Part shown: positions 38,622 to 64,000 of the stretch, in pieces
How the letters are laid out: each line of letters starts with the position of its first letter
Numbering within the stretch: the first letter of the stretch is position 1
Made by a program: the position numbers and the translations under genes
Source: an uncultured Thermococci archaeon
GTDB taxonomy: Archaea > Methanobacteriota_B > Thermococci > Methanofastidiosales > B48-G16
Assembly (NCBI GenBank): GCA_964595645.1
Contig: CAZQQT010000003.1
Location: 157,636-221,635, forward strand
DNA: 64,000 nucleotides
Reading direction: 5' to 3'
The notes under the pieces: model-generated
What the model saw: the letters and a program-made list of their open reading frames with translations, nothing else
Told to the model about the DNA's origin: nothing
Databases searched by the model: none

Positions 38622-38828
38622 TTAATCTTCTTCTACGTATATCGCAAGATCAGGACAGTTCATTTCGCAGTTCTTGCACAGTATACAGTCTTCTGGGCGT
38701 TTCGCTATGGAGTAGTTGTATCCTTTCTCATTTCTTTCATCAGACATCTCAAATACATCCTTTGGACATACGTATAAACATAACTCACAGCCTTTGCATA
38801 CTGTTCTGTCTATATGAATTTTTGCCAT
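38622..38828 (-). CDS. 2x[4Fe-4S] ferredoxin / OFOR delta subunit
   Basis: CKGCELC...CP and CILCKNCE..CPD. Confidence 0.93.
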   Translation of the reverse strand: MAKIHIDRTVCKGCELCLYVCPKDVFEMSDERNEKGYNYSIAKRPEDCILCKNCEMNCPDLAIYVEED

Positions 38829-38840
38829 TTTTCTTTCCTC

Positions 38841-39707
38841 CTACATAATATCTAATACTAATTTGGGTATTTCCTGAGGAGTTTTCGCTATGAAGGACCC
38901 AGCTTCTTTTAACACGTTGATTTTGTGCTCTGCAGTTCCTGCTTCTCCTTCTATAATAGCACCTGCATGTCCCATCTTTTTTCCGGGTGGGGCAGATCGT
39001 CCTACGATAAGAGAAATTACAGGCTTCTCTATATTCTCCTTAATGTATTTCGCTGTTTTTTCTTCCATCGTTCCACCTATCTCACCCAAGAGAACAATTG
39101 CCTCTGTTTGTTCATCTTCTTGGAACAGACGCAGGACATCTGTCTGCGAAGTTCCCCAGAGCGGTCCGCCGCCAATACCAACAACGGTAGACTGCCCCAC
39201 AGATCCTTCTGTCATTGATTTGCATACTTCATAAGAAAGTGCACCACTTTTGGAGACAACACCCACCTTTCCCTCTTTGAAGAACATATGTGGATGAACG
39301 CCCACCTTACACTTCCCCGGAGAGATAAGGCCCGGTGTGTCAGGGCCCAGTATTCGTGCATTTTTTGCCTGTGCGTACTGTAGCATCTTCAGAATGTCAA
39401 CATTCGGTATTCCTTCAGCTGTCATCACGATAAACTTGATTCCTGCATCTATCGCTTCATACGCAGCATCCAACGTGAACCGCGCGGGTACAAAACTGAT
39501 CGCAGCGTTAACCTCATGCTCGGCAGTTGCTTCCTCCACAAAATCATAGACAGGAATACCATCGACGCTCTGACCACCCTTTCCAGGTGTCACACCGGCA
39601 ACAATCTCTGTTCCATACTTCTTCATTATTTTTGTCTGGAAGGATCCTGTTCTGCCCGTAATACCCTGAACAAGGACTCGTGTGTCTTCATCGATAAATA
39701 CTGCCAT
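38841..39707 (-). CDS. sucD: Acyl-CoA synthetase (ADP-forming) alpha subunit, SucD-like
   Basis: VQGITG, GVTPGKGG, SKSG.L.YE, GEIGG, phospho-His MGHAGA; GPDTPG replaces GPNCPG. Confidence 0.88.
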   Translation of the reverse strand: MAVFIDEDTRVLVQGITGRTGSFQTKIMKKYGTEIVAGVTPGKGGQSVDGIPVYDFVEEATAEHEVNAAISFVPARFTLDAAYEAIDAGIKFIVMTAEGIPNVDILKMLQYAQAKNARILGPDTPGLISPGKCKVGVHPHMFFKEGKVGVVSKSGALSYEVCKSMTEGSVGQSTVVGIGGGPLWGTSQTDVLRLFQEDEQTEAIVLLGEIGGTMEEKTAKYIKENIEKPVISLIVGRSAPPGKKMGHAGAIIEGEAGTAEHKINVLKEAGSFIAKTPQEIPKLVLDIM

Positions 39708-39709
39708 AA

Positions 39710-40828
39710 TTAACACGCTCCCGCTAGCTCTACAGCTTTTTGCACTGCTTCATAGAGGTTGTCAAAGGTTTCAAATCCTTCCTCATGCAACATCTTTTTT
39801 CCTACATCCTCGAGTGTCCCACTCATTCGTATTACCACAGGCATCTGTTCATGTTCTTCAAAAAATGCAATGATGCCCTCAGACATCTCATCCATTCTGT
39901 TCAATCCACCGATCATGCTGATAAGCATTACCTTCACACTTGGATTCGATGAAACCAATATCATCGCATTTTTTATTGTATCGGGCGTCGTCACACCGCC
40001 CATTTCAGAGAAATTCGCTGCCTTCCCTCCTTCATCACTGATAAGATCGAGGGTGAGCATGCCCGTTCCCGCACCATCCGAGATGAGTCCGATATCGCCG
40101 TCGAGCTCTATATAGGTGGAGAGACCGTACTCTTCTGCCTTCTTTTCTTGTGCATCTCCTTCTCGTTCCAGTTGCGAAAAGATCTGCTGTCTGTACGATG
40201 CCTTGTTATCGAGTACCACCTTCGCGTCAACGGCCTGCAACGATCCATCGCGCGTGACTACGAGTGGGTTAATTTCTACAAGATTGGCATCACGTTCCAT
40301 GAAGAGAGTATACATCTTTTTACAGATATCGTATAGCTCTCGTCCCACTCCTACTTTCTTTGCGATGCGTCGCAGTTCGTAGTTGCTCAATCCCTTAAAC
40401 ACATCAATTCGTATTTTTAAGATTTTTTCCGGAGTTTTTTCAGCTACACGTTCGATGTTCACTCCTCCTTCAGAAGATGCGATGAAAACTGGACAGTTGT
40501 TCTCCTTATCTAGCGTGATGCCCAGGTATATTTCCTCCTCTATCTCAGCTTTGGACTCGAGAAGTACTTTTTTTACTGTATATCCTTTTATTTTTGAGCC
40601 CAGCAGTTCTTTTATCCCTGCAGCAGCTTGTTCCTTTGTCTCTGCAAATTGTATTCCTCCTGCGAGCCCTCGTCCTCCGGTAAGTACTTGTGATTTCATT
40701 GCAATAGGGAAGGATGTCTTCTCCACTGCAGATGAAAGATCAGTCTCTGTTGTCACTACTACACCCGTAGGGACTGGTATCTTATATGTGCGAAAGATAT
40801 CTTTGGCCTCAAACTCGTAAAGCCTCAT
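39710..40828 (-). CDS. sucC: Acyl-CoA synthetase (ADP-forming) beta subunit, SucC-like, divergent
   Basis: LYEFEAK, KSQV..GGRG.AGG, EGG.NIE, EINPL, DAK; acid-binding motifs altered. Confidence 0.88.
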   Translation of the reverse strand: MRLYEFEAKDIFRTYKIPVPTGVVVTTETDLSSAVEKTSFPIAMKSQVLTGGRGLAGGIQFAETKEQAAAGIKELLGSKIKGYTVKKVLLESKAEIEEEIYLGITLDKENNCPVFIASSEGGVNIERVAEKTPEKILKIRIDVFKGLSNYELRRIAKKVGVGRELYDICKKMYTLFMERDANLVEINPLVVTRDGSLQAVDAKVVLDNKASYRQQIFSQLEREGDAQEKKAEEYGLSTYIELDGDIGLISDGAGTGMLTLDLISDEGGKAANFSEMGGVTTPDTIKNAMILVSSNPSVKVMLISMIGGLNRMDEMSEGIIAFFEEHEQMPVVIRMSGTLEDVGKKMLHEEGFETFDNLYEAVQKAVELAGAC

Positions 40829-41385
40829 GAAATCTCCCTTTTGATACCCTCAGAGATCTTAATACCTTCATCTACGGCTTTCAGGTTGGCTTCAAGGAAC
40901 TTCTCAGGAACTGAATCTTTGACGGCTTTTTTGAGATTCTCCTTGGATATCAGCCCTGTAAAGTCCTGTAGGAATCCCAACATTACCATATTCGCTGTTA
41001 TCTGCTTTTTTATTTTTTCAGATGCTGTCTTCGTGGCAGGCACTTCTACTCTCTGTACATCCTTCCGATCTTTGATTTCTTTGACCATATCGGGATCAAT
41101 TACAAGCAATCCATCCTTTTTTAATGTGTCAATATATCTCTCGTAGGCTTGTTGGGACATGGCTACAAGTATATCCGCCATATCTGCGATGGGAGAATTG
41201 ATGTGCTCATCGGACAATGTGAGTTCAGATTTACATTCTCCTCCTCTTGCCTCGGAACCAAAGGACTGTGTTTGCACGCCATGTTTGCCGCCGTACTCAA
41301 CTGCTGCTCTACCGAATACTACAGAGGAAAGAATAATGCCCTGTCCACCAAAGCCACAAAATCGTATTACTGTTTTCTCAGACAT
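40825..41385 (-). CDS. 2-oxoacid:ferredoxin oxidoreductase gamma subunit
   Basis: GFGGQG, QSFG.EARGG, NMVMLG. Confidence 0.93.
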   Translation of the reverse strand: MSEKTVIRFCGFGGQGIILSSVVFGRAAVEYGGKHGVQTQSFGSEARGGECKSELTLSDEHINSPIADMADILVAMSQQAYERYIDTLKKDGLLVIDPDMVKEIKDRKDVQRVEVPATKTASEKIKKQITANMVMLGFLQDFTGLISKENLKKAVKDSVPEKFLEANLKAVDEGIKISEGIKREIS

Positions 41386-41386
41386 C

Positions 41387-42211
41387 TCAATCTTCCTCCT
41401 GTGCTTTCTTTTCTAGTTCTACATATGTCTCTTCCAATGTGGGACGATCTTTTTTCACAAAGTTTCCAACGATGATTTTTCCATTCAGTGCTTCTTCATC
41501 CATTTTTTCTGCTTTTTCTTTTGTCACAGTTCTTTCTTTCATCCATTCCATGATATCCTTGGCCTTGGAAGAACCCAGTGCGTACCGTCCAAAATGCGTT
41601 GGACACTGCCCAATAATCTCAATCATCGTAAAGCCATTGTGGTTCATCCCGTCCTTTATGTCCTGGATAACCTTCCGCGGATAGTTGGTCGTCCACCGGC
41701 TCACAAATGTCCCTCCTGCAGCCTTGGTCAGTTCACAGAGATCGAATAGGGGCTCTTTGTTTCCTCGGGGTGTTGTTGTAGTGTATAGATCGAGAGGAGT
41801 CGTGGGTGCCACCTGACCACCGGTCATCGCGTAGTTCATGTTATTGTTGACGATCACCGTGACATCTAAGTTCCTTCGCGCTGCTTGGATAAGATGGTTT
41901 CCACCGATTGCTGCAATACCACCATCTCCTGAGAATACTACGACATTTAGCTCAGGATTGTGGAGTTTGATTCCTGTCGCCCACGGGAGTGTTCTTCCGT
42001 GGATGCCGTGGAGAGCCTCTGCCTTGATATACACCGGAACTCTTGCAGTACACCCTACACCACCGATAGCAACTAATTTATCCATATCCAGCTCCATCTC
42101 ATCTGCTGCACGCAAAAATAAATTCATTATCTGTCCTGCACTACATCCTGGACAAAAAAAGTGTGGTAGTGCCCATTCCCGAAGAAATTTCCTTTGTGGA
42201 TTAACTTTCAT
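41387..42211 (-). CDS. 2-oxoacid:ferredoxin oxidoreductase beta subunit
   Basis: CPGC, G.GC, HGR....ATG.K, GDG, NN..Y.MTGGQ..PTT, CPT. Confidence 0.93.
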   Translation of the reverse strand: MKVNPQRKFLREWALPHFFCPGCSAGQIMNLFLRAADEMELDMDKLVAIGGVGCTARVPVYIKAEALHGIHGRTLPWATGIKLHNPELNVVVFSGDGGIAAIGGNHLIQAARRNLDVTVIVNNNMNYAMTGGQVAPTTPLDLYTTTTPRGNKEPLFDLCELTKAAGGTFVSRWTTNYPRKVIQDIKDGMNHNGFTMIEIIGQCPTHFGRYALGSSKAKDIMEWMKERTVTKEKAEKMDEEALNGKIIVGNFVKKDRPTLEETYVELEKKAQEED

Positions 42212-43347
42212 TTGTATTCCTCCTCGATTTTCTTCAAAACTTCTTCTGTTGTATGGATTATCCCTCTGTTCTTTGGGAGTGAGATAACGTTGCAGTGTTT
42301 CTTTCCTACGCGATCCACTTCAGAGAAGTACTTACCTACATTCATCTCCATCACGATCATTGTGTCGACCTTCTTCGAAAGATCCTCTATTGCCTTTTCT
42401 GGCACCGGCCATATGGTAACGAGTTTTAACAGTCCTACATTGTATCCATCGTCTCTCGCTTTCATTACCGCATCCAATGCTGGTCTACACTCACTTCCAT
42501 ACGCCACAAGAAGAATATCCGCATCGTCTGCGTAGTATGTCTCCCACTCACAGATATCGTCCACATTGTTCCGTATTTTCCCGAGAATGCGTTCATAAAG
42601 GTGTTCAAACACATCGGGATCCCAGTCAATTCTTCCCTCTGGACTGTGGGGGTTAAGCGAGTATAATATTTTGTATCCCTCTCCAAAGGCAGGCATGGGA
42701 GGAACATCATTCTCCTCTGCTTCGAAGGGGAGAAATTCTTCTGGAGGCACCGTGGGTTTCTTCCTGTTCACTATCTCGATCTCTTCCGGTTCCGGGATCA
42801 CCAGCCGCTCACGCATGTGGCTCAGTATCATCTCAGAGATGACTGTTACCGGATTTCTATACTTTTCTGCCAGATTAAATGCTTTTACTGTGTAATCGAA
42901 CAGCTCTTGAACCGTTGAGGGAGCAAGGCAGATTGCTTCGAAATCGCCGCTTGCACCCCACCGCATCTGCATCACATCTGAGTGAGTTGCGTAGTTCTCT
43001 CCTCTACATCGCTGCACATCTACTATCACGAGAGGCGCTTCAACAGCGTAGGCGTATCCAAGTCCTTCCTGCATGTAGTTGAATCCAGCACTGGCAGTAG
43101 CGGTCATAGGTTTCGCACCGCAAAGAGAAGCTCCCGTTAAAGAGTAGATGGAACCGAGTTCGTCCTCCATCTGTATAAACTTTCCGCCGACTTCAGGCAT
43201 TCGTTCGGACATTCTCTCCGCGATTTCGCTGGCTGGTGTGATAGGATAGCCAGCAAAAAAGTTACACCCTGCCGCAATCGCACCTTCCACAACGGCATGA
43301 TTGCCAAACATAAAGTGGGTGCCGGACAAAATTCTTTTTCTTTTCAT
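42208..43347 (-). CDS. 2-oxoacid:ferredoxin oxidoreductase alpha subunit (KorA-like)
   Basis: GN.A..EGA, YPITP, QMEDE, TATA..G...MQE, EMN.G. Confidence 0.93.
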   Translation of the reverse strand: MKRKRILSGTHFMFGNHAVVEGAIAAGCNFFAGYPITPASEIAERMSERMPEVGGKFIQMEDELGSIYSLTGASLCGAKPMTATASAGFNYMQEGLGYAYAVEAPLVIVDVQRCRGENYATHSDVMQMRWGASGDFEAICLAPSTVQELFDYTVKAFNLAEKYRNPVTVISEMILSHMRERLVIPEPEEIEIVNRKKPTVPPEEFLPFEAEENDVPPMPAFGEGYKILYSLNPHSPEGRIDWDPDVFEHLYERILGKIRNNVDDICEWETYYADDADILLVAYGSECRPALDAVMKARDDGYNVGLLKLVTIWPVPEKAIEDLSKKVDTMIVMEMNVGKYFSEVDRVGKKHCNVISLPKNRGIIHTTEEVLKKIEEEYK

Positions 43348-43409: not shown

Positions 43410-43425
43410 CCCTAATATAATAAGA
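43410..43425 (-). promoter_or_regulatory. Island palindrome site (OFOR/SucCD operon)
   Basis: CCCTAATATAATAAGA, abutting a minus-strand TATA-like element. Confidence 0.65.
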
Positions 43426-43520: not shown

Positions 43521-44585
43521 ATGAAGCTTGCCATTCTAGGAGGCGGTAGCGCTGGACTTGGTGTTGCCGGATATGTGGCTTTGAAAGAACACGAAGTGAA
43601 CATTTACAACAGGACACCGGAGAGAGTAGCAGAAATAGCGAAATCTGGAAGCCTTACAGTCTCTGGAGTAGTTGAGGGAACTGTCACCGTACACAAGGCG
43701 TCTTCAGATATGGAAGACATCGTAGAAGAGGCAGAGTATATTTTAATCGCCGCTCGTGCATTCGGCCACAGAACGCTTATTGAACGTTGTCTTCCTTATA
43801 TTAAAAATAACGCAGCGATTGTAGTATTTACTGGATACTGGGCAGCATTGCGCCTACAATCACTTCTTACCACAGAGAAAAGAGAAGATATCACCATTGC
43901 CGAAACCACACTTCTTCCCCTAATATCTCAGACTGTGGGTCCCGATCACGTGAAGATCACTGGTATAAAGTCAAAGATGAGAATTGCTGCGTATCCAGCT
44001 CCAGCCACGTTACCAGTACACGAAGAACTAAAAGAAATTTTTCCTAACTTATTTCCTGGTAAAAACGTGCTGGAAACAAGTTTAGAGAACTTTAATCCTG
44101 TGGTTCACGTCCCCATCGCACTCTTCAATCTGGCCCAGATAGAGAGAAGGGGAGAAACGTTTGAGTTTTATCAGGAGGGTATCTCGCCGAAGATTGCCGA
44201 TACGATTGATGCAGTGGATAGAGAGAGGATGGACCTTATACACACCTTTGATCTCGAGTTAATGTCGTTCAGAGAGATTCTACTGGATTATTATGAAACA
44301 GAAGGCACTTCGACATATGAGGTAGTGAAAAACTGTGAGCCAATGAAGGGGTACGTGCTTCCAAGTCCCCTCGAGTACGTGCAGGAGGACCTTCTCTATG
44401 GGCTTGTACCCATTGTATCGCTCTGCAATTCTCTGGGAATCCCAGCTGAGACAGCAAAGGCACTCATATCAACATGGTCACTGGTAAACGCAGAAAATTA
44501 CTGGAAAAAGGGAGTAAAAGCCGTCGATCTCGGCGTAGAAAATATGGATAGTAGAGAAATACGTAAAAAAGTAGAAGAGGGATAA
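43521..44585 (+). CDS. Opine (octopine/nopaline) dehydrogenase family protein
   Basis: GGGSAG Rossmann motif, IAET..LP, L.N.NP..H, FY..G, D.ER, Y..ED..YGL.P. Confidence 0.88.
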   Translation: MKLAILGGGSAGLGVAGYVALKEHEVNIYNRTPERVAEIAKSGSLTVSGVVEGTVTVHKASSDMEDIVEEAEYILIAARAFGHRTLIERCLPYIKNNAAIVVFTGYWAALRLQSLLTTEKREDITIAETTLLPLISQTVGPDHVKITGIKSKMRIAAYPAPATLPVHEELKEIFPNLFPGKNVLETSLENFNPVVHVPIALFNLAQIERRGETFEFYQEGISPKIADTIDAVDRERMDLIHTFDLELMSFREILLDYYETEGTSTYEVVKNCEPMKGYVLPSPLEYVQEDLLYGLVPIVSLCNSLGIPAETAKALISTWSLVNAENYWKKGVKAVDLGVENMDSREIRKKVEEG

Positions 44586-44587
44586 AA

Positions 44588-45853
44588 ATGTATGAGACGC
44601 ATCTGGAATGTATTCACTGTGGAGAAAAATACGATCTTAAAAAAATGTTTGAAGGCTGTCCCCGCTGTAAAAAAGAGGATTTCCTATCAAATGTAACTGT
44701 TTCCTATGACTACGAAAAAATTAAGGAGAAGGTGGATAAAAAAGCTTTGGAGAAGAGAAAAAGGAATAACGTGTGGAAATATAAAGAGTTACTGCCAATA
44801 ACACTAGATACAGAGACAACATTAGGGGAAGGAGGAACACCTCTACTCGAATGTACTACCTTGAGAAAAGAGTGGGGAATCGACAAGTTAGCAGTGAAGG
44901 ATGAATCGAGAAATCCTACTCACACTTTTAAAGATAGACTGGCTGCTGTTGGAATGTTCATGGCAAAGAAATTTAATACTCATTATATTATCGCCGGTGG
45001 AGGAAATACAGCTGCTGCTGCATCAGCATACAGTGCCAAGTATGGGGCAGAAGTAATCAGCTTTGAAAATCTCTATGAATCCAAACAGGCAATTCTACAG
45101 ACACGATCTTACGGAGGAAAAATCGTCTACTTAAAGCAGTATGACGATCGGTATATGCTCATGAAAAAATGTGTTGATACGCTCAATGGTTACTCGTTTT
45201 CAAGTTATACCCTCTCACCCGCTGGAGATCCCTACGGTTCAGAGGGATACAAAACAGTTGCCTATGAACTCTGCGAGCAGTGGGATTGGGAAAGTCCAGA
45301 TATGGTAATTGTCCCCACTGGACAGGGGATTGCATTATATGGGATCTGGAAGGGATTTGTAGACCTTCACACAGTAGGGCTCATTGATACGTTGCCAAAA
45401 ATGGTCGCAGCGGAATCTACGGCCGCCGGCTCTCTCACGAGAACACTTCTTAGTGAAGACGAGAAAATCAGAGAAGTTACTCCAGGACTGACGATAGCCA
45501 GACAGACAAGGATCCCCAAGGTGAGCTATAAAGGATATCGTGCGGTAAAAGACTCAAACGGAAACGCAGTAATGGTTGAAGATGAAGAAACCATGAGCGC
45601 TCTTCTACAACTGGCCAGGAAAGAAGGAATATACTCAAGTACTACCTCCGCAGTAGTGCTTGCAGCGGCGAGAAAACTAAAAGAGAAGGGGGAGATAGAT
45701 ACTGACACACGAGTAGTCTGTGTAATTACAGGGGGAGGATTAAAGGATCCCGATCACATGATACATCACCTTCCCGCCCTTCCTGATCCCATTGAAGGTA
45801 ACTGGAAACAATTTAAACAGCTCATGAATGCACACTATACCCTCTCTATATAA
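44588..45853 (+). CDS. Threonine-synthase-like PLP enzyme (fold type II) with N-terminal Zn ribbon
   Basis: CIHC/CPRC, LGEGGTPL, KDE..NPT.TFKDR, EGYKT.AYE, TG.GLKD; GGGNT and PTGQG are non-canonical. Confidence 0.85.
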   Translation: MYETHLECIHCGEKYDLKKMFEGCPRCKKEDFLSNVTVSYDYEKIKEKVDKKALEKRKRNNVWKYKELLPITLDTETTLGEGGTPLLECTTLRKEWGIDKLAVKDESRNPTHTFKDRLAAVGMFMAKKFNTHYIIAGGGNTAAAASAYSAKYGAEVISFENLYESKQAILQTRSYGGKIVYLKQYDDRYMLMKKCVDTLNGYSFSSYTLSPAGDPYGSEGYKTVAYELCEQWDWESPDMVIVPTGQGIALYGIWKGFVDLHTVGLIDTLPKMVAAESTAAGSLTRTLLSEDEKIREVTPGLTIARQTRIPKVSYKGYRAVKDSNGNAVMVEDEETMSALLQLARKEGIYSSTTSAVVLAAARKLKEKGEIDTDTRVVCVITGGGLKDPDHMIHHLPALPDPIEGNWKQFKQLMNAHYTLSI

Positions 45854-46618: not shown

Positions 46619-46672
46619 CTCTAATATAATAGGTATTAAAATTATTTAAAAATTTTCCCTATTATAAAAGGT
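46619..46672 (-). promoter_or_regulatory. Two island palindrome sites flanking the regulator's TATA box
   Basis: CTCTAATATAATAGGT (46619-34) and CCCTATTATAAAAGGT (46657-72) either side of minus-strand TTTAAATA. Confidence 0.7.
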
Positions 46673-54295: not shown

Positions 54296-54339
54296 TTTTA
54301 TCACTATTAAGAGTGGTAGTTTTTTTTTTTTAACTTTGC

Positions 54340-55383: not shown

Positions 55384-55399
55384 TATTAAGATAATAGGG
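55384..55399 (+). promoter_or_regulatory. Island palindrome site (transporter 2 operon)
   Basis: TATTAAGATAATAGGG, then TTATAATA 5 nt later. Confidence 0.55.
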
Positions 55400-55445
55400 A
55401 TAAATTATAATAATAAATCTAAGAGGAAAGTATCTGGTGTTTACT

Positions 55446-56705: not shown

Positions 56706-56709
56706 ACTA

Positions 56710-56736
56710 TTTTTTTCTTTTTTTTATATATTTTTT
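56710..56736 (+). terminator. Oligo-T tract after substrate-binding protein gene
   Basis: T7-C-T8...T6; an equivalent minus-strand tract follows copy 1 at ~52901-52927. Confidence 0.5.
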
Positions 56737-56763
56737 AATCATTAATAAGCGGAGGAAAAGGAA

Positions 56764-57630: not shown

Positions 57631-57645
57631 CGGAGGCGGAGAGAT

Positions 57646-58638
57646 ATGGATAGAGAAGATATTTTGGAGAAAATTCGAAGAAAAAAATGGCAAATTCCAA
57701 TATTACTAACACTATTAGTACTCCCCTTGTTCATTAGCGATGAGCCCTTCTTGCTTCATGTGTGCATTATGACATTTGTCTACTTGGCACTATCGCAGGC
57801 ATGGAACCTTATTGGAGGGTTTGCAGGGCAATTAAGTTTTGCAAATCACATCTTTTTTGCCTTTGGAGCATATACCTCTACAATGCTGTTAATTCATCTT
57901 AATCTCACACCATGGTTGGGCGTATTTGCAGGAATCGCCATTGCTGCAAGCGTTGCATATCTCCTGGGATTTCAGCTGTTCCATCTCAAGGGGCACTATT
58001 TTGCTGTAGCTACAATTGCATTTGCTGAGATGGTAAAGGTACTCTTTATCAATTGGAGGGGCGTAGGTGCCGCATATGGCCTCTCTCTTCCCGCCAAAAT
58101 GCCCTCGTTATACCATATGATGTGGTCTTCGAAAATACCTTACTACTATATGGCACTGGGAATGGCGATCGGTGCTACGGTATTAATTTACGTCATAGAT
58201 AAGGCGAAAGCGGGGATGTACTTTAGATCAATAAAACAAGATGAAGAAGGAGCAGAACACAAAGGAATAGACACTAGTTACTACAAACTCCTCGCTTTCA
58301 TGATTAGTGCAGGTATTTGTGCAACAGTAGGTACGTTTTACGCACAGTATATACTGTATATATCACCTCGAAGTACCATGGAGATTTTAATTTCTACTAA
58401 ATGTATTCTAATTGTACTTTTTGGTGGGCTGGGGACTGTTGCTGGTCCCGTATTGGGTGCCGCTATCCTTGTACCGCTAGGAGAATACACAAGAATACAG
58501 CTCGGAGGCGGCGGAGAAGGATGGGATTACATAATCTACGGGATCATTATTTTGGTGATACTGTTGTACCAACCAAAAGGTGTGTACGATCTTCTAAGGG
58601 GGTACAAAAAATATGTCGAGAAAATGTTTGGAAGTTAA
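57646..58638 (+). CDS. livM: LivM-like permease, copy 2
   Basis: WNL.GGFAGQLSF, LKGHYFA.AT, GGLGT..GP. Confidence 0.93.
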   Translation: MDREDILEKIRRKKWQIPILLTLLVLPLFISDEPFLLHVCIMTFVYLALSQAWNLIGGFAGQLSFANHIFFAFGAYTSTMLLIHLNLTPWLGVFAGIAIAASVAYLLGFQLFHLKGHYFAVATIAFAEMVKVLFINWRGVGAAYGLSLPAKMPSLYHMMWSSKIPYYYMALGMAIGATVLIYVIDKAKAGMYFRSIKQDEEGAEHKGIDTSYYKLLAFMISAGICATVGTFYAQYILYISPRSTMEILISTKCILIVLFGGLGTVAGPVLGAAILVPLGEYTRIQLGGGGEGWDYIIYGIIILVILLYQPKGVYDLLRGYKKYVEKMFGS

Positions 58639-59362
58639 CGCTCTTACAAAACGATTTGGAGGATTGACTGCTCTTGACAATGTCGATCTTCACGTTGATG
58701 AAGCTGAAATAGTAGGACTTATAGGACCAAATGGTTCAGGGAAAACAACACTGTTTAACTGTATTACTGGTTTCTATAAACCAAATGGTGGAAAGGTGAT
58801 CCTAAGAGAAAAGGATATCACAGGGGAGTCTCCTCATGAGATAATCCAAGAAGGAGTGTCTAGAACATTTCAGATTGTCAGAGTTTTTCCAGAGCTCACC
58901 GTGACCGAAAATGTATTGATCTCCATATACCATAAAAGAGAGAGCCGATTTGGATCTCTCTGTAGACGAAATGATTCGAAAGAGATAAAAAAAGCATCAA
59001 AACTCCTTGATTTTGTAGACATATCTCATTTATCAGATGAACCCGCAGGAGAACTTTCTTATGGGCAGCAAAAATTGTTGACGTTGGCTTCTGCACTTAT
59101 GCAAGACCCGAGTGTAGTACTTCTCGATGAACCCACAGCGGGTGTGAACCCTACCCTCATAAATAAGATTGTGGAAAGAATAATGGAAGCCAATAAAGAA
59201 TTTGATGTGACGTTTTTTGTGATAGAACACAACATGGATGTCATGATGAACATTTCAACGAGAATGTATGCATTGGCTTCTGGTAAAATACTTACTGAAG
59301 GAATCCCTAATGAAGTGAGAAACAATCCGGATGTACTTGAAGCGTATTTTGGAGGCGATTGA
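58613..59362 (+). CDS. livG: LivG-like ATPase, copy 2
   Basis: GPNGSGKTT, LSYGQQK, LDEPTAG.N, IEH. Confidence 0.93.
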   Translation: MSRKCLEVNALTKRFGGLTALDNVDLHVDEAEIVGLIGPNGSGKTTLFNCITGFYKPNGGKVILREKDITGESPHEIIQEGVSRTFQIVRVFPELTVTENVLISIYHKRESRFGSLCRRNDSKEIKKASKLLDFVDISHLSDEPAGELSYGQQKLLTLASALMQDPSVVLLDEPTAGVNPTLINKIVERIMEANKEFDVTFFVIEHNMDVMMNISTRMYALASGKILTEGIPNEVRNNPDVLEAYFGGD

Positions 59363-59364
59363 TC

Positions 59365-60072
59365 ATGTTACTAGAAGTAAAGGGGATTCACGCTTCATAT
59401 GGGAAGTTTGAAATCCTTAAAGGTGTAGATCTTCATGTGGAAAAAGGTGAGATTGTATCGATGATCGGTCCGAACGGCGCAGGAAAATCTACTGTGTTTA
59501 AAACAATTTTTGGTTTTTTAACTCCTTTAAAAGGGAGAGTCATATTTAAAGGAGGAGATATTGGTGGGTTACCACCTCATGAAGTTATAAGAAAGGGAAT
59601 CTCCTATAACTTTCAGAGGAGCAGTGTGTTTCCCAACATGACCGTGAAAGAGAATATGGACATGGGCGCATACATCAGAAATGATACAGAGGAAATCAAG
59701 AGAGATATAGAAGAATTGAACAACATGTTTCCAATTCTAAAAGAAAGAAAAAATGAAATGGCAAAAAATCTAAGTGGTGGACAAAGACAGATGGTAGAAA
59801 TGGCAAGGGGGCTTCTTTTGCATCCAGATTTATTCCTACTCGACGAACCTACTGCTGGGTTGGCCCCAAAAATCCAAAAAACTGTATTTGAAAAGATACG
59901 AGAAATAAATGAGAATGGCGTAACTGTAATGATCGTGGAACAAAATGCCCGACTCGCGCTTCAGCATAGTAATCGAGCATACGTGCTGGAGAATGGCAGA
60001 ACAATAATGGAAGGATCTGGAGAAGAGATCTTGCATAATCCTCGGGTAATAGAGGCCTATTTAGGGGGGTAA
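59365..60072 (+). CDS. livF: LivF-like ATPase, copy 2
   Basis: GPNGAGKST, LSGGQ, LDEPTAGLAP, VEQNA. Confidence 0.93.
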   Translation: MLLEVKGIHASYGKFEILKGVDLHVEKGEIVSMIGPNGAGKSTVFKTIFGFLTPLKGRVIFKGGDIGGLPPHEVIRKGISYNFQRSSVFPNMTVKENMDMGAYIRNDTEEIKRDIEELNNMFPILKERKNEMAKNLSGGQRQMVEMARGLLLHPDLFLLDEPTAGLAPKIQKTVFEKIREINENGVTVMIVEQNARLALQHSNRAYVLENGRTIMEGSGEEILHNPRVIEAYLGG

Positions 60073-60095
60073 GAAACAATCATCAGAGGCCTAAT

Positions 60096-62006
60096 ATGAA
60101 TGTCACGGAAGGTAATATACTTCATGTGGATCTCTCCTCTGGAGAAATATCCTTTGAATCGCATGAAAAAAGCTACAAAAAATTCTTAGGTGGGAGGGGA
60201 GTAAACCAGTACATCCTTTTCAACAAATTACCACAACACATTTCTCCGTTTGATCCTCAGAACATAATTGTTTTGGGGGCAGGCCTACTTAACGGTACGC
60301 AAGCACCTACCGCATGCAGAATGAGCATTGACACAAAAAACGTTCTTACAGGGGGAATTGGCTCCAGCAATGTTGGCGGATGCTTTGGTCCTGAAATGAG
60401 AAGGGCGGGCATTACAAATATCGTCATCACCGGCAAAGCGAAAAAACTTTCATACCTAACAGTAGAAGATGAAGAAATCGAACTAAAGGATGCATCCCAC
60501 CTCAAACAAAAAACCATTTCGGAAACAGAGAAAATGATTGGCGATGATACTGGAAATAATTTCCAGATAATGAGTATCGGGCCAGCCGGAGAAAATCTCG
60601 TGAGATCGGCCTGCATTATTGTTAACGGTGCGAGAGTTGCCGCACGTTGTGGTACTGGTGCGGTGATGGGATCGAAAAATCTGAAGGCGATCGCTGTAAG
60701 GGGAAATGGTATGGTAGAAGTAGCGAACTCCAGAAAATTTGAAGAGGAGATAGAAAGATGCAACGAAAAGCTACTGTGCGCAGATTCCTTCGAAAAGATA
60801 CAAAAATACGGAATATATTTCAATAAAAATCCATGGATCGAAGGGCCGCAAACACCCTACAAAAATTTCTCTGGTGAACATCCAAATTCGGAAGAAGAAG
60901 AAAAACTAAAAAGAGAAAAGTTCTTTAAATACAAAATCGGAAGAAAAGGATGTTGTGATGCCTGCCCCCTTGAAGGGTGGAGTGTATATGGGTGGAAAGA
61001 AAACGGAAAGACAATTACTGTGGAGCAACTTCAGTACAACGCGATTCACAATTTTGGATATAAGCTGGGTATCTTCGAACCAAAAGAAATACTCAAGGCC
61101 CATACACTGGCCAACAATCTCGGTCTCGACGAGGATAATCTGTGTGGAGTAATTGCTTGGGCTATAGAATGTTATAAAAAAGGGTTACTTACTCGCAAGG
61201 ATACTGATGGTGTCTCTCTTGAAGGGGGGAACACTGAGGTAATTTCTCAGCTCATGGAAAAAATTGCGTATAGAGAAGGAATTGGCGATCTTTTGGCTGA
61301 GGGATGTAAACGAGCATCAGCAAAAATCGGAAGGGGAACTGAAAAGTACTGCGTGCACGTGAAGGGTCAGGAACTTTTTGAGACATTGTGGCTTTCTCCT
61401 GCGTGGAGTCTAGGGACCGTTGTGTCTCCCCGAGGAGGAACTCATACACGGGGAGCTATTATGGTTAACGCAGTAAAAAACGCACTTTCCGAGGATCAGT
61501 GTAGAGAACTATTCGGCTGTTCTGTTGGGGAGATGACTTCGTACGAAAATAAAGAAAAATTGGTATTCTTCATGGAAAAGTTTGAATCGGTGCTGGATTG
61601 TATGGGGATGTGTTTTTTTGTTCATGGTATACACAGAAAAGGCATGCTGATGCCCACCGATCTCTCGGCACTACTCTCAGCTGCTATGGGTCATAAAATA
61701 TCCTCCACTACTCTACTAGCGATTGGTGAGAGTGTAACTAACCTTGAGAAATCTTTCAACGTTCTTCATACAGAATGGACACGAAAAAACGATTATCCTC
61801 CGAAAAAATTTATGAATACACCCCTTAAAGGAAAAGATAGTATTGATCGAGAGAAATGGAAGAAAATGCTCAACAACTATTATGAACTCCATAGATGGGA
61901 TAAAAGGACAGGATGGCCCACGCGAAAAACATTAGAAGATCTTGATCTACAGGTAGTGGCAAATAAATTGAAGAAATATGAGAAATTGCCCAATATGAAA
62001 AAATGA
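60096..62006 (+). CDS. AOR/WOR family oxidoreductase, copy 2
   Basis: LGGRG, IGPAGEN, RCG.GAVMGSKNLKAI, GLD, REG.GD.LAEG, RGG.H, YY....WD..TG.P. Confidence 0.93.
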   Translation: MNVTEGNILHVDLSSGEISFESHEKSYKKFLGGRGVNQYILFNKLPQHISPFDPQNIIVLGAGLLNGTQAPTACRMSIDTKNVLTGGIGSSNVGGCFGPEMRRAGITNIVITGKAKKLSYLTVEDEEIELKDASHLKQKTISETEKMIGDDTGNNFQIMSIGPAGENLVRSACIIVNGARVAARCGTGAVMGSKNLKAIAVRGNGMVEVANSRKFEEEIERCNEKLLCADSFEKIQKYGIYFNKNPWIEGPQTPYKNFSGEHPNSEEEEKLKREKFFKYKIGRKGCCDACPLEGWSVYGWKENGKTITVEQLQYNAIHNFGYKLGIFEPKEILKAHTLANNLGLDEDNLCGVIAWAIECYKKGLLTRKDTDGVSLEGGNTEVISQLMEKIAYREGIGDLLAEGCKRASAKIGRGTEKYCVHVKGQELFETLWLSPAWSLGTVVSPRGGTHTRGAIMVNAVKNALSEDQCRELFGCSVGEMTSYENKEKLVFFMEKFESVLDCMGMCFFVHGIHRKGMLMPTDLSALLSAAMGHKISSTTLLAIGESVTNLEKSFNVLHTEWTRKNDYPPKKFMNTPLKGKDSIDREKWKKMLNNYYELHRWDKRTGWPTRKTLEDLDLQVVANKLKKYEKLPNMKK

Positions 62007-62020: not shown

Positions 62021-63007
62021 TTACAGAATATACGAAAGTATTGACTTCTGTGCGTGCAACCTATTTTCCGATTCGTCGTAAATTACGGAGTTCGGTCCAT
62101 CCAGTACTTCATCTGTCACTTCGTCACCGACTGCAGCAGGTAGTGCATGTTGTACCATCACATCTCTTTTAGCGAGAGAAACCAGATCACTATCCGTAAT
62201 CCAATGCTTATATTTTTCCGGATTCTTAATATGAGGGGCCTCTGTTCCTTCCCCCTCCATTCCTTTGGTTGCGTAGATGTCTGGTGCCCATCCTTTTACA
62301 TGGATGACATCTGCATCTTCGGCAGCTTCCTCTCTATCATGGGTAAGTGTGAGAGTTGAACCATGCTGTTCTGCCTGTTCCCGTGCATAATCAAGCATAT
62401 CATCATTTGGGTCGTATCCTTCGGGATATGCAAGAACGAGATCCATTCCTAATTTCGATCCGGCTTCCAAAGTTGAATTCACGATACCCAACGGCTTGCT
62501 GTAGGGACAGTAACCCCACATCATCACATACTTTACTCCTTCGAGACTCTTTTTCCGCTCATACGCTGTCATAAAATCTGCCATGACCTGACATGGATGT
62601 CCAGCTTCACTATTCGCATTGATTACAGGGACATCTGCCCACTTCGCCATTTCTTGTTGATCGGAGAAGTTAAACGCTCTATACATGATTCCATCAACGT
62701 ATCGGGCCAATACAGATGCTTTATGCTTTAGTGGCTCCTTTCCTTTGCCCCATGACGCACCTGGAGGATAGAATATAGCGTGTCCTCCCAGCTGCTCCAT
62801 TCCTGTTTCGAAGGATGTTCTCGTTCGTGTGGACTCCCACTCGAACAGCATCGCCAAAACTTTTCCTTTGAGGGTCTCGTGAGGTACTCCCCTCTGAAGC
62901 TTATCTTTTAGATCTATTGCGGTATCAAGTATCTTTAGTATCTCCTCTCTACTATAGTCCTTTAATGTTAGAAAGTCTCTTCCTTTCATGGGTCGTTTGG
63001 AAGACAT
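62021..63007 (-). CDS. Carbamoyltransferase, YgeW/N-acyl-ornithine (knotted) type rather than canonical ArgF
   Basis: STRT, HPCQ, WGYCPYSKPLGI, VKGW, HALP, ENRLH; no D..NN or SMG motifs. Confidence 0.88.
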   Translation of the reverse strand: MSSKRPMKGRDFLTLKDYSREEILKILDTAIDLKDKLQRGVPHETLKGKVLAMLFEWESTRTRTSFETGMEQLGGHAIFYPPGASWGKGKEPLKHKASVLARYVDGIMYRAFNFSDQQEMAKWADVPVINANSEAGHPCQVMADFMTAYERKKSLEGVKYVMMWGYCPYSKPLGIVNSTLEAGSKLGMDLVLAYPEGYDPNDDMLDYAREQAEQHGSTLTLTHDREEAAEDADVIHVKGWAPDIYATKGMEGEGTEAPHIKNPEKYKHWITDSDLVSLAKRDVMVQHALPAAVGDEVTDEVLDGPNSVIYDESENRLHAQKSILSYIL

Positions 63008-63053
63008 TTTTTCACCACTCAGTATTAAAATCTATGAGATATTAAATAGTTAC

Positions 63054-63069
63054 TCCTATTATTTTAAGT
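63054..63069 (-). promoter_or_regulatory. Island palindrome site (carbamoyltransferase)
   Basis: Reverse complement ACTTAAAATAATAGGA, then TTTAATAT. Confidence 0.5.
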
Positions 63070-63164
63070 ACTTTCTTCGTTCAACTCGCGTAAGGGAGTC
63101 TGTAAATAAAACAAAAAGATCGTAGACAACGGTGCCTCTATTCACGGTTCGAAAAGACTGATAT

Positions 63165-63935
63165 CTAATACTGGTATTCCATGAGATCTTTGACGATCTC
63201 CACAGTCCGTTCGATAATAATCTTCACAATTTTCTCTCCTTTCTCCTTCGTAGCCTTAGTCGCATCTCCCATGACACCTGATCTAGATCGTTCACTCACT
63301 GTGGTAAGAGGAAGAAAAAATTTATGTGACGGCATCCCAGCAATTCTACTCTCATAGCTTTTAAACGGGTTTTTTGAGAACTCCTTTACTGCTTTGCTCA
63401 TATCCACATCCATCTCCATCGCGAGTGCAACAGATGTCTCCCCCTCATCAGCATGCCATAATGTCTCTACAATATCACCTGTGACGTCTTCCACCAACTG
63501 GAACCAATCCACCACAGGAATCACAATATTGTATTTTTGATAGAATCTCTGTGAGGTAATAGCAAGAAAATGAGGATTTCCTCCATGCCCGTTCAGTACA
63601 AGTATCTTTTTAAATCCATTGTCCACTACGCTCCTGCATACATCCCATACCACGCTTTGGAAAGTTTCAGAATCTAGTGAGAGTTTTCCAGGATAATCCA
63701 TCCACTCAGAATAACCAAATTTCAATGTGGGAATAACAACTGCGTTGATATTATTTTCTCGGCACGCGAGCGCCACCTGTTTCGCAAGTGCTGTCGCATT
63801 AAAAGAATCGCATTCAACGGGAAGATGGGCCCCATGTCCTTCGATTGAACCAATAGGGAAAATAATTACCGTATTCTCCTTATCTAACTCTCCTATTTCT
63901 TCCATAGTCATATCTTTCCATAGAATTTTTTCCAT
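63165..63935 (-). CDS. Creatininase-family amidohydrolase, copy 2
   Basis: IEGHGAHLP...D, NGHGGN, HADE.ETS, GVMGD. Confidence 0.92.
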   Translation of the reverse strand: MEKILWKDMTMEEIGELDKENTVIIFPIGSIEGHGAHLPVECDSFNATALAKQVALACRENNINAVVIPTLKFGYSEWMDYPGKLSLDSETFQSVVWDVCRSVVDNGFKKILVLNGHGGNPHFLAITSQRFYQKYNIVIPVVDWFQLVEDVTGDIVETLWHADEGETSVALAMEMDVDMSKAVKEFSKNPFKSYESRIAGMPSHKFFLPLTTVSERSRSGVMGDATKATKEKGEKIVKIIIERTVEIVKDLMEYQY

Positions 63936-63948
63936 GTGAACACCATTT

Positions 63949-64000
63949 TTAGTCGGATACCACTACAGTACCCGCATTGCCGTTCAACGCCTCGTGCGCA
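63949..64000 (-). CDS. 3' end of a probable carbamate kinase (truncated by the window edge)
   Basis: Hand translation ...AHEALNGNAGTVVVSD* matches the AL.G..GT.V C-terminus of carbamate / amino-acid kinases; only 16 aa visible. Confidence 0.6.
   Translation of the reverse strand, partial: AHEALNGNAGTVVVSD

Follow-up and report, generated by a model that had tools for sequence, protein, structure and literature searches.

We analyzed a stretch of 64,000 nucleotides from an uncultured Thermococci archaeon (G000:C3:157636-221635; the window), in which a putative catabolic island occupies the last 25.2 kb up to the 3' edge, which coincides with the end of contig C3. The source DNA is a microbial-mat metagenome, and the DNA runs carrying the stretch all stem from such metagenomes, with no RNA run listed among them; the source genome comprises 1.97 Mb and is 99.96% complete. 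Families were assigned by Pfam and NCBIfam profile searches against curated cut-offs, and the features are listed in Table 1. On the minus strand (43347 down to 38841), the operon korA-korB-korC-sucC-sucD encodes a 2-oxoacid:ferredoxin oxidoreductase (Kor) and a SucCD-like, ADP-forming acyl-CoA synthetase. Opposite to it lie an opine-dehydrogenase-family gene and a ThrC-like gene for a fold-II pyridoxal phosphate (PLP) enzyme, separated from each other by 2 nt (43521-45853), and next to these the gene of an HTH_10 transcription regulator. A first ABC importer operon (minus strand, 54304 down to 46684) encodes a substrate-binding protein (SBP1), two permeases, two ATPases, a creatininase-family protein and an aldehyde:ferredoxin oxidoreductase (AOR1); a second one on the plus strand encodes SBP2, permeases, ATPases and AOR2, and the gene of a two-Cys Amdase/EutA-like enzyme lies between the two. 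On the minus strand, a second creatininase gene precedes a carbamoyltransferase gene, and the end of a carbamate kinase (CK) gene reaches the window edge. The gene families that an earlier, sequence-only reading of the window had listed were all recovered at their places by the profile searches; the HTH_10 regulator gene was absent from that list. The SBPs of the two operons share 37% identity, the AORs 43%, and creatininases 1 and 2 share 64%; the two importer operons are old paralogues.

The island genes share an upstream palindrome. Six sites, plus a weaker one at 55384, fit the 16-bp consensus CCCTAwTATwwTAGGG, and the degenerate pattern YCTAWTATWDWARG has 6 exact matches in the window compared to 0.12 expected, with at most one match in every shuffle; both this pattern and the position weight matrix (PWM) used below were derived from the very sites they score. 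In a genome-wide PWM scan (1.97 Mb), six of the eight top-scoring matches fell within the island, and at a PWM score of at least 16, 7 of 10 genome matches were located in the extended island, including its part on contig C5 described below. The palindromes sit 37-96 bp upstream of start codons, namely those of korA and the opine dehydrogenase gene, the regulator gene (two sites), SBP1 (two sites), SBP2, and the carbamoyltransferase gene. Scanning the loci of relatives with the window-trained PWM revealed two palindromes upstream of the HTH_10 gene in both L005/L082 and L062, a palindrome upstream of korA of L062 (genome G004; L062:3700), palindromes before the carbamoyltransferase gene (L081:10857, L005:9894/9939, L034:2368, and L035:934), one before the AspAT-like gene of L081, and an orthologous palindrome in the SBP1/Amdase spacer of L082 (L082:4689). 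The same scan found no palindrome in four control loci (L060, L061, L013, and L037). The shared palindrome of the sequence-only reading thus proved to be real, given its excess in the window and its retention at orthologous promoters, and this operator conservation provides good comparative support for one regulon.

The HTH_10 regulator is encoded by a single-copy gene, orthologues of which adjoin island genes in L062, L082, and L033; an HTH_10 gene is also present in a cluster of a complete Thermococcaceae genome (G110). Because of its position and the two sites at its own promoter, we infer that the HTH_10 protein binds the palindrome, and it probably controls the island via this operator at six or seven promoters. 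Off-island PWM matches were found at C2:189682 (transglutaminase-like), C11:76995 (MBL-fold/SSF transporter), and C1:218337 (PAS/GAF protein), with no clear link to the island; they may be chance matches or separate targets. The C2 match is strong (score 18.5) and lies in the start region of the transglutaminase-like gene, which is adjoined by a heliorhodopsin gene (C2:187410-188183, L077:1411-2184; PF18761, 325 bits).

The window breaks off within the CK gene. Frame -1 of 63949-63999 reads AHEALNGNAGTVVVSD followed by a stop codon, in agreement with the CK ends of relatives (e.g., EALKGEAGTIIVP and stop), which confirms the CK end that had been called probable. A 30-codon open frame at 63908-64000 (minus strand) was rejected as CK; the CK end lies in the neighbouring frame. 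The continuation beyond position 64000 was located on contig C5, at the very end of which the plus strand opens a gene with MNKTIVIALGGNA, the first 13 codons of CK (C5:168956-168998). CK is thus assembled only as 16 C-terminal and 13 N-terminal codons, the remainder falling into an assembly gap of ~0.85 kb. No CK was found elsewhere in the assembly with the TIGR00746 profile, an apparent absence that is explained by this gap. An 18-kb metagenome contig (L081), whose creatininase and carbamoyltransferase are 81% and 89% identical to those of the window, carries the region intact. One of its strands encodes PpsA, an SBF transporter, a LarA-like protein, an Asp/Glu racemase, an AspAT-like aminotransferase, and a D-glutamate-cyclase-like protein (PF14336); the diverging strand encodes CK (334 aa), the creatininase 2 orthologue, carbamoyltransferase, and then AOR2. 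The ends of the 334-aa AA_kinase gene match both CK fragments, and the genes corresponding to the L081 flank occupy C5:163721-168694 in the source genome, with a palindrome scoring 16.3 located 37 bp before the C5 aminotransferase gene. The island, described before as at least 25 kb in size, hence keeps that minimum and extends to ~31 kb over two contigs (25.2 kb up to the window edge, ~0.85 kb of CK in the gap, and 5.3 kb on C5).

Contig C12 was also considered as the continuation of the window and rejected, as the fragment at its start is aspartate-carbamoyltransferase-like (HPTQ, MHPLPR) and on the wrong strand. This fragment (C12:1-493; L018) is a second aspartate-carbamoyltransferase-like gene, truncated by the contig start and separate from a PyrB-like gene at C10:53863-54789.

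The island carbamoyltransferase keeps the carbamoyl-phosphate motifs ESTRTRTSFE (STRTR) and HPCQ, while GDGNN is replaced by W-G-Y-C-P-Y-S-K-P-L-G, DVWxSMG by HVKGWAP with an 11-residue insertion, and HCLP by HALP. These altered motifs are common to ~20 clusters from uncultured archaea, including ones labelled Bathyarchaeia, and the ornithine-binding DxxxSMG loop and HCLP are absent across the clade. In contrast, canonical ornithine carbamoyltransferases (OTCs) keep the normal motifs, including the source genome's own ArgF at C9:89017-89955, so that the enzyme had rightly been classified as non-ArgF. It scores 282.0 vs a cut-off of 280.85 on TIGR00658 and 289.8 vs 306 on NF001986, its best solved match is the Pyrococcus furiosus OTC, and it fails the YgeW models TIGR03316/NF005538 (104.7 vs 500). 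It is 26% identical to Escherichia coli YgeW, lacks the YgeW N-domain insertion, and has HALPAA for HCLPAD. Its acceptor motifs WGYC-PYSKPLG and HVKGWAP align with WAYSPSYGKPLS and YPKSWAP of YgeW, and we place it in a non-OTC clade of its own whose acceptor motifs are of the YgeW type. In the reductive uric-acid pathway, YgeW acts on 2,3-diureidopropionate, the 2-ureido group of which it cleaves by phosphorolysis (PMC12507026). Members of the island clade adjoin ring-opening amidohydrolases, i.e., Amidohydro_1 in L008 and L011, and creatininase together with a flavin reductase in L013, and a true YgeW-like second transcarbamylase is often present as well. The YgeW-like acceptor motifs and the ring-opening neighbours make a catabolic role likely, in which an N-carbamoyl compound and phosphate would be converted to an amine and carbamoyl phosphate.

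Two further arrangements of carbamoyltransferases were observed in relatives. In genome G004, CK and a SucC-like gene directly follow the gene of a true YgeW-like carbamoyltransferase that shares 34% identity with E. coli YgeW (L061, G004:C28:1-4120), another catabolic carbamoyltransferase-CK pairing in the lineage. Bathyarchaeia contigs (L008/L009/L010) combine a Bmp-type ABC importer and two non-OTC carbamoyltransferases, one YgeW-like and one of the island clade (P0001), with an F420-luciferase-family reductase, a 460-aa Amidohydro_1 protein, a class-III aminotransferase, cytidine deaminase, PyrB/PyrI, a CK-sized AA_kinase, and an aldehyde dehydrogenase. This cluster resembles the F420 variant of the reductive purine pathway that is mentioned in PMC12507026, and it may harvest carbamoyl phosphate twice.

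A lead to the substrate that had not been seen before comes from the binding proteins. Both SBPs match PDB entry 8WCH over their full length (~395 residues), SBP1 with an E-value of 2.3e-83 and SBP2 with 7.9e-77; the next Liv-type SBP follows at 1e-12 for SBP1, and ordinary Leu/Ile/Val-binding proteins reach no better than 1e-12 to 1e-14 against either protein. The 8WCH structure is SAR11_0655 of Ca. Pelagibacter ubique, crystallised with L-pyroglutamate (Kd <5 nM), and its gene adjoins the pxpABC 5-oxoprolinase genes (PMC11485210). As close homologues, SBP1 and SBP2 would belong to the L-pyroglutamate-binding SBP class, which points to a pyroglutamate-class ligand. A creatininase-family gene follows the importer genes here, at the place of SAR11's 5-oxoprolinase. 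The creatininases are a family of cyclic-amide hydrolases. Creatininases 1 and 2 score 197.7 and 188.8 bits on PF02633, and 101 and 105 vs a cut-off of 235 on the creatininase equivalog TIGR04448; their clade comprises ~10 clusters. No PxpA was found in a search of the source genome.

Further candidates for ring chemistry lie nearby. The D-glutamate-cyclase-like gene (PF14336) borders the island on C5 and directly follows the opine dehydrogenase/PLP pair in G004 and G005; from its family name and the mammalian enzyme, we take it to be tied to the interconversion of D-glutamate and 5-oxo-D-proline. The Amdase/EutA-like enzyme retains both Cys residues (YGCTSG, ISCTDF), its best NCBIfam match is EutA (TIGR02990; 112.7 vs a cut-off of 318), and orthologues or homologues occur in L082, L037, L032, and G110. 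AOR1 has the P. furiosus AOR as its best solved match; AOR2 shares 53% identity with a third AOR, encoded on C7, and is nearer to that one than to AOR1. On a 41-kb JGI contig (L082:9108-11654), three creatininase-family genes in tandem follow the importer. Taken together, the SBP match, the creatininase after the importer, the D-glutamate-cyclase-like neighbour, the racemases, and the aminotransferase point to five-membered-ring amino-acid derivatives as substrates that would end as glutamate and 2-oxoglutarate. Elsewhere on C5, we observed a hydantoin-type cluster (C5:116664-123071; L080) consisting of a 458-aa gene, a hydantoin-racemase-like and a regulator-like gene, HyuA (659 aa), and HyuB (508 aa), with weak palindrome-like matches in its vicinity (C5:111145 and C5:115702).

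The opine-dehydrogenase-family protein scores 117.9 bits on PF02317 (Octopine_DH; cut-off 30) and has an N-terminal Rossmann domain. Its sole solved relative in the PDB is CENDH (1BG6, E-value 2e-37), with which H196 and D290 align at H202 and D297, which we take to be the catalytic His-Asp pair of CENDH. H196 is invariant in 17 homologues, and D290 is Asp or Glu in the clade. At the position of R292 of CENDH, presumably the Arg that binds the 2-oxoacid carboxylate, the island protein has E285, and the clade consensus is not Arg. Homologues are rare, with 38 clusters in a set of 5.8 billion proteins and 5 species genomes. The ThrC-like enzyme falls below all ThrC cut-offs (best NF006050, 257.4 vs 303; TIGR00260, 139.5 vs 167.1) and keeps the PLP lysine (TFKDR). 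Its clade has IAGGGN in nine of nine members, compared to S-S-G-N, S-A-G-N, and S-N-G-N in the three ThrC-like paralogues of the genome, and PTGQG compared to PVGNG; among 1.84 billion 50%-identity representatives, there is one other of the clade, followed by a drop to at most 40%.

The two genes are adjacent in all eight opine dehydrogenase loci (the window, L031, L032, L033/L036, L034, L035, L037, and L038, the last being a Theionarchaea contig in which the opine dehydrogenase gene is split in two). The carbamoyltransferase gene adjoins the pair in G004 and G005, and in genus g2 of the same family, AOR2 and carbamoyltransferase genes are arranged divergently to those for opine dehydrogenase, the PLP enzyme, the D-glutamate-cyclase-like protein, the AspAT-like aminotransferase, a racemase, and a LarA-like protein. 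The opine dehydrogenase/ThrC-like pair is thus a conserved two-gene module of undescribed function, and we found no literature account that couples an opine dehydrogenase with a threonine synthase-like protein. The pair most likely would act as a dehydratase or lyase plus a C=N reductase, in the manner of BhcB/BhcD or of the proposed EutB/EutC with EutA (PMC5924519), because of the EutA-like neighbour in the window and because L005 and L033 carry BhcC-like, RidA, and aminotransferase genes nearby; such a role would fit these neighbours at least as well as opine-type C-N cleavage.

The Kor/SucCD set differs from the canonical one of the genome. It is 39-50% identical to the canonical set on C9 (42-50% for SucCD), and the C9 set is closer to canonical proteins. 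Island korA shares 66% identity with an Ignavibacteria copy and 58% with a Thermococcaceae copy, both of which lie in like clusters, and a ThrC-like gene stands beside this special paralogue set in three distant genomes. On the Ignavibacteria contig (L037), we found genes for an SBP, Amdase, an AspAT-like aminotransferase (59% identical), korABC-sucCD, opine dehydrogenase, the PLP enzyme, a class-III aminotransferase, and a racemase. The Thermococcaceae cluster (G110) contains HTH_10, M29-like, SSF transporter, and M24 creatinase-type hydrolase genes and a PLP homologue (41% identical), and continues with SSF, Amdase, aminotransferase, and korABC-sucCD genes. The PLP enzyme, the Amdase-type racemase, the aminotransferase, and this Kor/SucCD subtype travel together across domains.

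Within the family, we searched six genomes with five island queries (creatininase, carbamoyltransferase, opine dehydrogenase, D-glutamate-cyclase-like protein, and SBP1). Close orthologues of all five were present in G004, and three of five in G005 (69% complete), where SBP1 and creatininase had no match; none of the five was found in G001, which belongs to the same genus as the source genome, G002, or G003 (89-94% complete). Island genes thus occur together in three of the six family genomes (G000, G004, and G005). The PLP gene follows the same pattern of presence and absence, and its clade was detected in 6 of 133 genomes of a phylum sample. As canonical ArgF, Kor, and SucCD are encoded elsewhere in the source genome and the markers were found in three of six family genomes, the island is accessory. 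The neighbourhood comparison therefore shows that the genes do co-occur in relatives, with sub-modules linked across domains, and the earlier proposal of a co-regulated, functionally linked catabolic island is supported by synteny, phyletic pattern, and operator conservation.

Table 1 Features of the island within the window. Scores are given vs the respective cut-off where two values are shown.
Feature	Position	Strand	Basis
sucD-like, ADP-forming acyl-CoA synthetase	38841-39716	-	Pfam; NCBIfam SucD 373 vs 336
sucC-like, ADP-forming acyl-CoA synthetase	39710-40828	-	NCBIfam 379.6 vs 375.55, but 366.1 vs 370
korC, 2-oxoacid:ferredoxin oxidoreductase subunit	40825-41385	-	Pfam
korB, 2-oxoacid:ferredoxin oxidoreductase subunit	41387-42211	-	Pfam; 235.7 vs 364 on 2-oxoglutarate equivalog
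korA, 2-oxoacid:ferredoxin oxidoreductase subunit	42208-43347	-	Pfam; generic NF006412 460 vs 411
Palindromic operator-like site, korA/opine dehydrogenase divergent region	43410-43425	.	PWM 19.6
Opine-dehydrogenase-family NAD(P) enzyme (P0002)	43521-44585	+	PF02317 117.9 bits
ThrC-like fold-II PLP enzyme, N-terminal Zn ribbon (PALP422, P0003)	44588-45853	+	PF00291
HTH_10 transcription regulator	45884-46576	-	PF04967
Two palindromic sites before regulator gene	46619-46634, 46657-46672	.	PWM 17.9, 18.8
AOR1, distal in ABC-1 operon	46684-48594	-	Pfam
Creatininase-family amidohydrolase 1, distal in ABC-1 operon	48599-49456	-	Pfam PF02633
ABC-1 importer: 2 ATPases, 2 permeases, SBP1 (52952-54304)	49431-54304	-	Pfam
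Two palindromic sites, SBP1/Amdase divergent region, upstream of SBP1	54340-54355, 54381-54396	.	PWM 20.7, 19.2
Two-Cys Amdase/EutA-like racemase or isomerase	54642-55352	+	PF17645 115 bits
Weaker palindromic site upstream of SBP2	55384-55399	.	PWM 13.7
ABC-2 operon: SBP2 (55437-56705), 2 permeases, 2 ATPases, AOR2 (60096-62006)	55437-62006	+	Pfam
Non-OTC carbamoyltransferase (P0001)	62021-63007	-	motifs
Palindromic site upstream of carbamoyltransferase	63054-63069	.	PWM 16.5
Creatininase-family amidohydrolase 2	63165-63935	-	Pfam PF02633
Carbamate kinase C-terminus, last 16 codons and stop	63949-63999	-	match to CK ends of relatives

On balance, we lean towards the reading that the island is an accessory regulon of ~31 kb by which amino-acid derivatives with a five-membered lactam or ureide ring are fermented, with a 2-oxoacid and carbamoyl phosphate as products. 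The gene content is observed, and from it we infer each of the following steps. The two paralogous ABC importers with their L-pyroglutamate-class SBPs would take up five-membered-ring amino-acid derivatives, candidates being lactams such as L-/D-5-oxoproline and/or ureide or amide analogues. Creatininase-family hydrolases and the D-glutamate-cyclase-like enzyme would open the ring or strip amide groups, and the two-Cys racemases (Amdase/EutA-like, and Asp/Glu-racemase-like on C5) would yield the usable stereoisomer. A carbamoyl group, if present, would be phosphorolysed by the YgeW-like non-OTC carbamoyltransferase, with ATP formation by CK. The ThrC-like PLP enzyme, the opine-dehydrogenase-family reductase, and the AspAT-like aminotransferase would convert the skeleton to 2-oxoglutarate or a close dicarboxylic 2-oxoacid, which the dedicated KorABC paralogue would turn into an acyl-CoA and the dedicated SucCD paralogue would use for a second ATP. 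The two AORs would oxidise aldehyde intermediates or by-products to acids with ferredoxin, and the two importer/AOR/creatininase sets would probably serve two related substrates with common downstream steps. Carbamoyltransferase with CK, and 2-oxoacid:ferredoxin oxidoreductase with an ADP-forming synthetase, each yield ATP at substrate level, and both enzyme pairs are present, as the sequence-only reading had stated.

Several observations weigh against this preferred reading. Regarding the substrate, at most one SBP is likely to bind pyroglutamate itself, because SBP1 and SBP2 are merely 37% identical, and plain pyroglutamate leaves the carbamoyltransferase without a task. ATP-independent opening of 5-oxoproline is thermodynamically unfavourable, and an ATP-dependent HyuA/HyuB pair is encoded elsewhere in the genome (C5:119.6-123.1 kb). 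KorB and SucC score under equivalog cut-offs (Table 1), and the 2-oxoacid may be one other than 2-oxoglutarate. The modules recombine between genomes: L037 and G110 are without creatininase, carbamoyltransferase, and AOR, and L082, a 41-kb contig, has three creatininases and two tandem ThrC-like PLP genes and no opine dehydrogenase gene, so that the PLP enzyme could work without a cis-encoded opine dehydrogenase. Regarding CK, its gene is preceded by a weak palindrome-like site only (PWM 10.5), and CK was found in 36 of 41 relatives. No CarB was found with TIGR01369 in the 99.96%-complete genome, and the split CK is the sole carbamoyl-phosphate-forming enzyme we found there. CK may therefore also be anabolic, or a housekeeping enzyme; canonical ArgF and PyrB may depend on it entirely for their carbamoyl phosphate, a situation that has been proposed for Pyrococcus. 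The island-free genome G001 encodes CK at a different locus, the syntenic place of which in the source genome (C8:81.4 kb) has no CK.

A further-reaching version of the preferred reading, which we put forward tentatively and consider rather doubtful, would see in the island an undescribed archaeal fermentation of a mat-abundant carbamoylated or cyclic-amide acidic amino-acid derivative that yields ATP twice per molecule, with four new enzyme activities and a new HTH_10 operator. Candidate substrates would be N-carbamoyl-L-glutamine amide (a compatible solute), hydantoin-5-propionate/-acetate, 2-imidazolidone-4-carboxylate, and D/L-pyroglutamate analogues. The new activities would be a creatininase-fold lactam/ureide/amide hydrolase, an OTC-derived N-carbamoyl-amino-acid phosphorylase with a YgeW-like acceptor site, a ThrC-derived dehydratase/lyase coupled to an opine-dehydrogenase-family imine reductase, and a Kor/SucCD set specialised for its product.

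The sequence-only reading had proposed a linear path that starts with the import of one cyclic ureide, hydantoin, or opine lactam and leads through ring opening, racemisation, and decarbamoylation to the opine dehydrogenase, which oxidatively cleaves a secondary amine to deliver the 2-oxoacid for Kor/SucCD. The retained His/Asp pair is in line with such a cleavage, as is the position of the opine dehydrogenase gene directly beside Kor/SucCD in the window and L037, and an N-substituted 5-oxoproline (opine lactam) would suit a pyroglutamate-class SBP and a lactam hydrolase. However, the Arg that binds the 2-oxoacid carboxylate in CENDH and octopine dehydrogenase (R292) aligns with Glu285 here and is not conserved in the clade, L082 and G110 have the PLP enzyme and/or the Kor set without any opine dehydrogenase, and the linear path leaves the ThrC-like enzyme without a role. 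That the importers, AORs, and creatininases each come as a diverged pair speaks against a single substrate. Since the modules are reshuffled between genomes, a single linear one-substrate pathway is not supported, and we consider it unlikely; what stands of the former scheme is the catabolic island with its two ATP routes. An equally unlikely alternative starts from compatible-solute-type cyclic amino acids (ectoine/hydroxyectoine-like amidines, proline/hydroxyproline) and an Ehu/Eut/Doe-like route of ring hydrolase, EutA-like racemase, fold-II PLP dehydratase, NADH-dependent C=N reductase, and aminotransferase, with AOR replacing the semialdehyde dehydrogenase. It draws on EutA as the best NCBIfam match of the Amdase gene, even though the score is far under the cut-off, and on the likeness to the proposed EutABC module (PMC5924519), which likewise joins a racemase and a fold-II PLP enzyme with an NAD(P)H reductase. 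The gene of an M24 creatinase/ectoine-hydrolase-type enzyme stands before the PLP homologue of G110, which has SSF transporter genes on either side, but no M24 hydrolase or deacetylase is among the Pfam assignments of the island. The microbial-mat source, and a fraction of 0.08-0.13 of the stretch's sampled words listed in hypersaline-lake runs, would suit a compatible solute; the SBPs, in contrast, resemble the pyroglutamate binder and not EhuB/UehA-type proteins, and neither the carbamoyltransferase/CK pair nor Kor/SucCD is given a clear role.

That the island is biosynthetic or housekeeping, with CK and carbamoyltransferase making a carbamoylated compound, the PLP/opine dehydrogenase pair building a diamino acid, an opine-type chelator, or a solute (cf. 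SbnA/SbnB and CntL/CntM), and the ABC systems serving re-import, seems improbable to us. In 2,3-diaminopropionate synthesis by SbnA/SbnB, a PLP beta-replacement enzyme cooperates with an NAD-dependent C-N enzyme, and 2-oxoglutarate is released. The PLP/opine dehydrogenase pair follows this logic, and CK as the only carbamoyl phosphate route found in the genome would be consistent with synthesis. Nevertheless, the presence of cyclic-amide hydrolases and racemases, of Kor/SucCD paralogues, and of two importers accompanied by AORs marks the gene set as catabolic, canonical ArgF and PyrB serve anabolic use of carbamoyl phosphate elsewhere, the island is dispensable in sister genomes, and no exporter, ligase, or NRPS-independent synthetase genes are among its Pfam assignments. 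The least probable explanation, which we hold to be very improbable, is that unrelated amino-acid genes are neighbours by chance and that the motif is merely a promoter element. An AT-rich centre and a distance of 37-96 bp to the start codons do place the motif near archaeal TATA/BRE positions, and gene order varies among the relatives, but the CCCTA/TAGGG arms are unlike TATA/BRE, the motif is almost confined to the island genome-wide and kept at orthologous promoters, the markers are jointly present or absent across the family, and sub-modules are linked in cross-domain loci.

At the proximal border of the island, a 130-codon open reading frame (38039-38431, minus strand) without a Pfam family overlaps a GNAT acetyltransferase gene on the opposite strand (38057-38617, plus strand) and probably does not represent a gene.

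Uncultured archaea in mats and sediments are generally assumed to feed on amino-acid detritus, with substrates and energy yields that are mostly guessed. The island offers a concrete case, as it combines two importers, whose nearest solved relative is a nanomolar pyroglutamate binder, with a defined operator and a candidate regulator. Most of its enzymes appear to belong to small, unstudied branches, which annotation pipelines misname 'ornithine carbamoyltransferase', 'threonine synthase', 'creatininase', or 'opine dehydrogenase'. Identification of the substrate would assign functions to clades that are also present in Bathyarchaeia, Theionarchaea, Thorarchaeota, and Ignavibacteria, and would reveal if the ATP-yielding phosphorolysis of carbamoyl groups, which bacteria have recently been shown to use in urate breakdown, is a wider strategy among anaerobic archaea.

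The kind of system is known, i.e., an importer with ring opening, carbamoyl phosphorolysis with CK, and 2-oxoacid:ferredoxin oxidoreductase with an ADP-forming synthetase. As far as our searches reach, this combination has not been described, and neither have the enzyme clades or the regulator with its operator. Literature searches found no archaeal pathway with this combination, as had been stated before, and no relevant account that unites creatininase with carbamoyltransferase and CK, or with 5-oxoprolinase. The island resembles the SAR11 pyroglutamate importer (8WCH, PMC11485210) in its Liv-type (Peripla_BP_6) SBPs of the same subfamily and in the position of the importer next to a ring-opening enzyme that would yield glutamate. 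Unlike that system, it has two diverged SBPs (37%) and a creatininase and/or D-glutamate-cyclase-like opener instead of PxpABC, and it adds carbamoyltransferase/CK, the opine dehydrogenase/PLP pair, AORs, and Kor/SucCD; the ligand class is predicted here from homology.

The reductive uric-acid (2,8-dioxopurine) pathway of E. coli, published in 2025 and among the closest described in its logic, is encoded by the ygeW-ygeX-ygeY-hyuA-yqeA cluster (PMC12507026; bioRxiv 10.1101/2025.04.24.650524). Its logic, to which the sequence-only reading had likened the island, holds up in the comparison: a ring hydrolase would provide an N-carbamoyl amino acid, a non-OTC carbamoyltransferase would phosphorolyse it, CK would form ATP, and a fold-II PLP enzyme would finish the skeleton, and the acceptor motifs W-x-Y-x-P-x-x-K-P-L and K-x-W-A-P of YgeW are found in the island carbamoyltransferase. 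The families differ, as had also been said. The island enzyme is 26% identical to YgeW, with an OTC-like N-domain and HALP for HCLPAD, the opener is of the creatininase family and not HyuA, and the PLP enzyme is ThrC-like and not DAPAL. The island adds Kor/SucCD, AORs, and opine dehydrogenase, and no Xdh (XdhD), YgfK, or SsnA is among its Pfam assignments in the window and the C5 part.

Likewise, the ectoine clusters (ehu/ueh with eutABCDE/doe; PMC5924519) are importer-linked catabolic islands for a cyclic amino-acid derivative, and they have in common with the island a racemase of the EutA type that is joined by a fold-II PLP enzyme and an NAD(P)H-dependent C=N enzyme. Further common elements are the ring hydrolase, the aminotransferase, and the oxidation of a semialdehyde. 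The ectoine clusters differ in using M24 instead of creatininase, an ornithine-cyclodeaminase-like enzyme instead of opine dehydrogenase, aldehyde dehydrogenase instead of AOR, and a threonine-dehydratase-like instead of a ThrC-like enzyme, and in having neither carbamoyltransferase/CK nor Kor/SucCD. In relatives of the island (L005 and L033), a fold-III enzyme with BhcC as its best NCBIfam match accompanies RidA, which recalls the BhcABCD enzymes. In that system, a fold-II PLP dehydratase forms an imino acid, an NADH-dependent imine reductase turns it into an amino acid, and an aminotransferase follows. The BhcC-like score of the relatives is, however, far under the cut-off (204.7 vs 690) without a glyoxylate context, the island reductase belongs to the opine dehydrogenase family and is not ornithine-cyclodeaminase-like, and the PLP enzyme is ThrC-like; BhcABCD are named as enzymes of the beta-hydroxyaspartate cycle (bioRxiv 10.1101/2022.08.08.503134).

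The downstream part of the island is similar to the fermentation of Thermococcales, in that a 2-oxoacid would be converted via acyl-CoA to an acid with ATP formation, and tungsten AORs, for which the P. furiosus AOR is the best solved match, would deal with aldehydes. Thermococcales ferment peptides and amino acids with 2-oxoacid:ferredoxin oxidoreductases, ADP-forming acyl-CoA synthetases, and AOR, which oxidises aldehydes from 2-oxoacid metabolism. Unlike their ACS I/II-type synthetases, that of the island is of the SucCD type, and in contrast to their general fermentation, the island would represent an accessory, specially regulated, and horizontally shared paralogue set that is tied to a specific import system.

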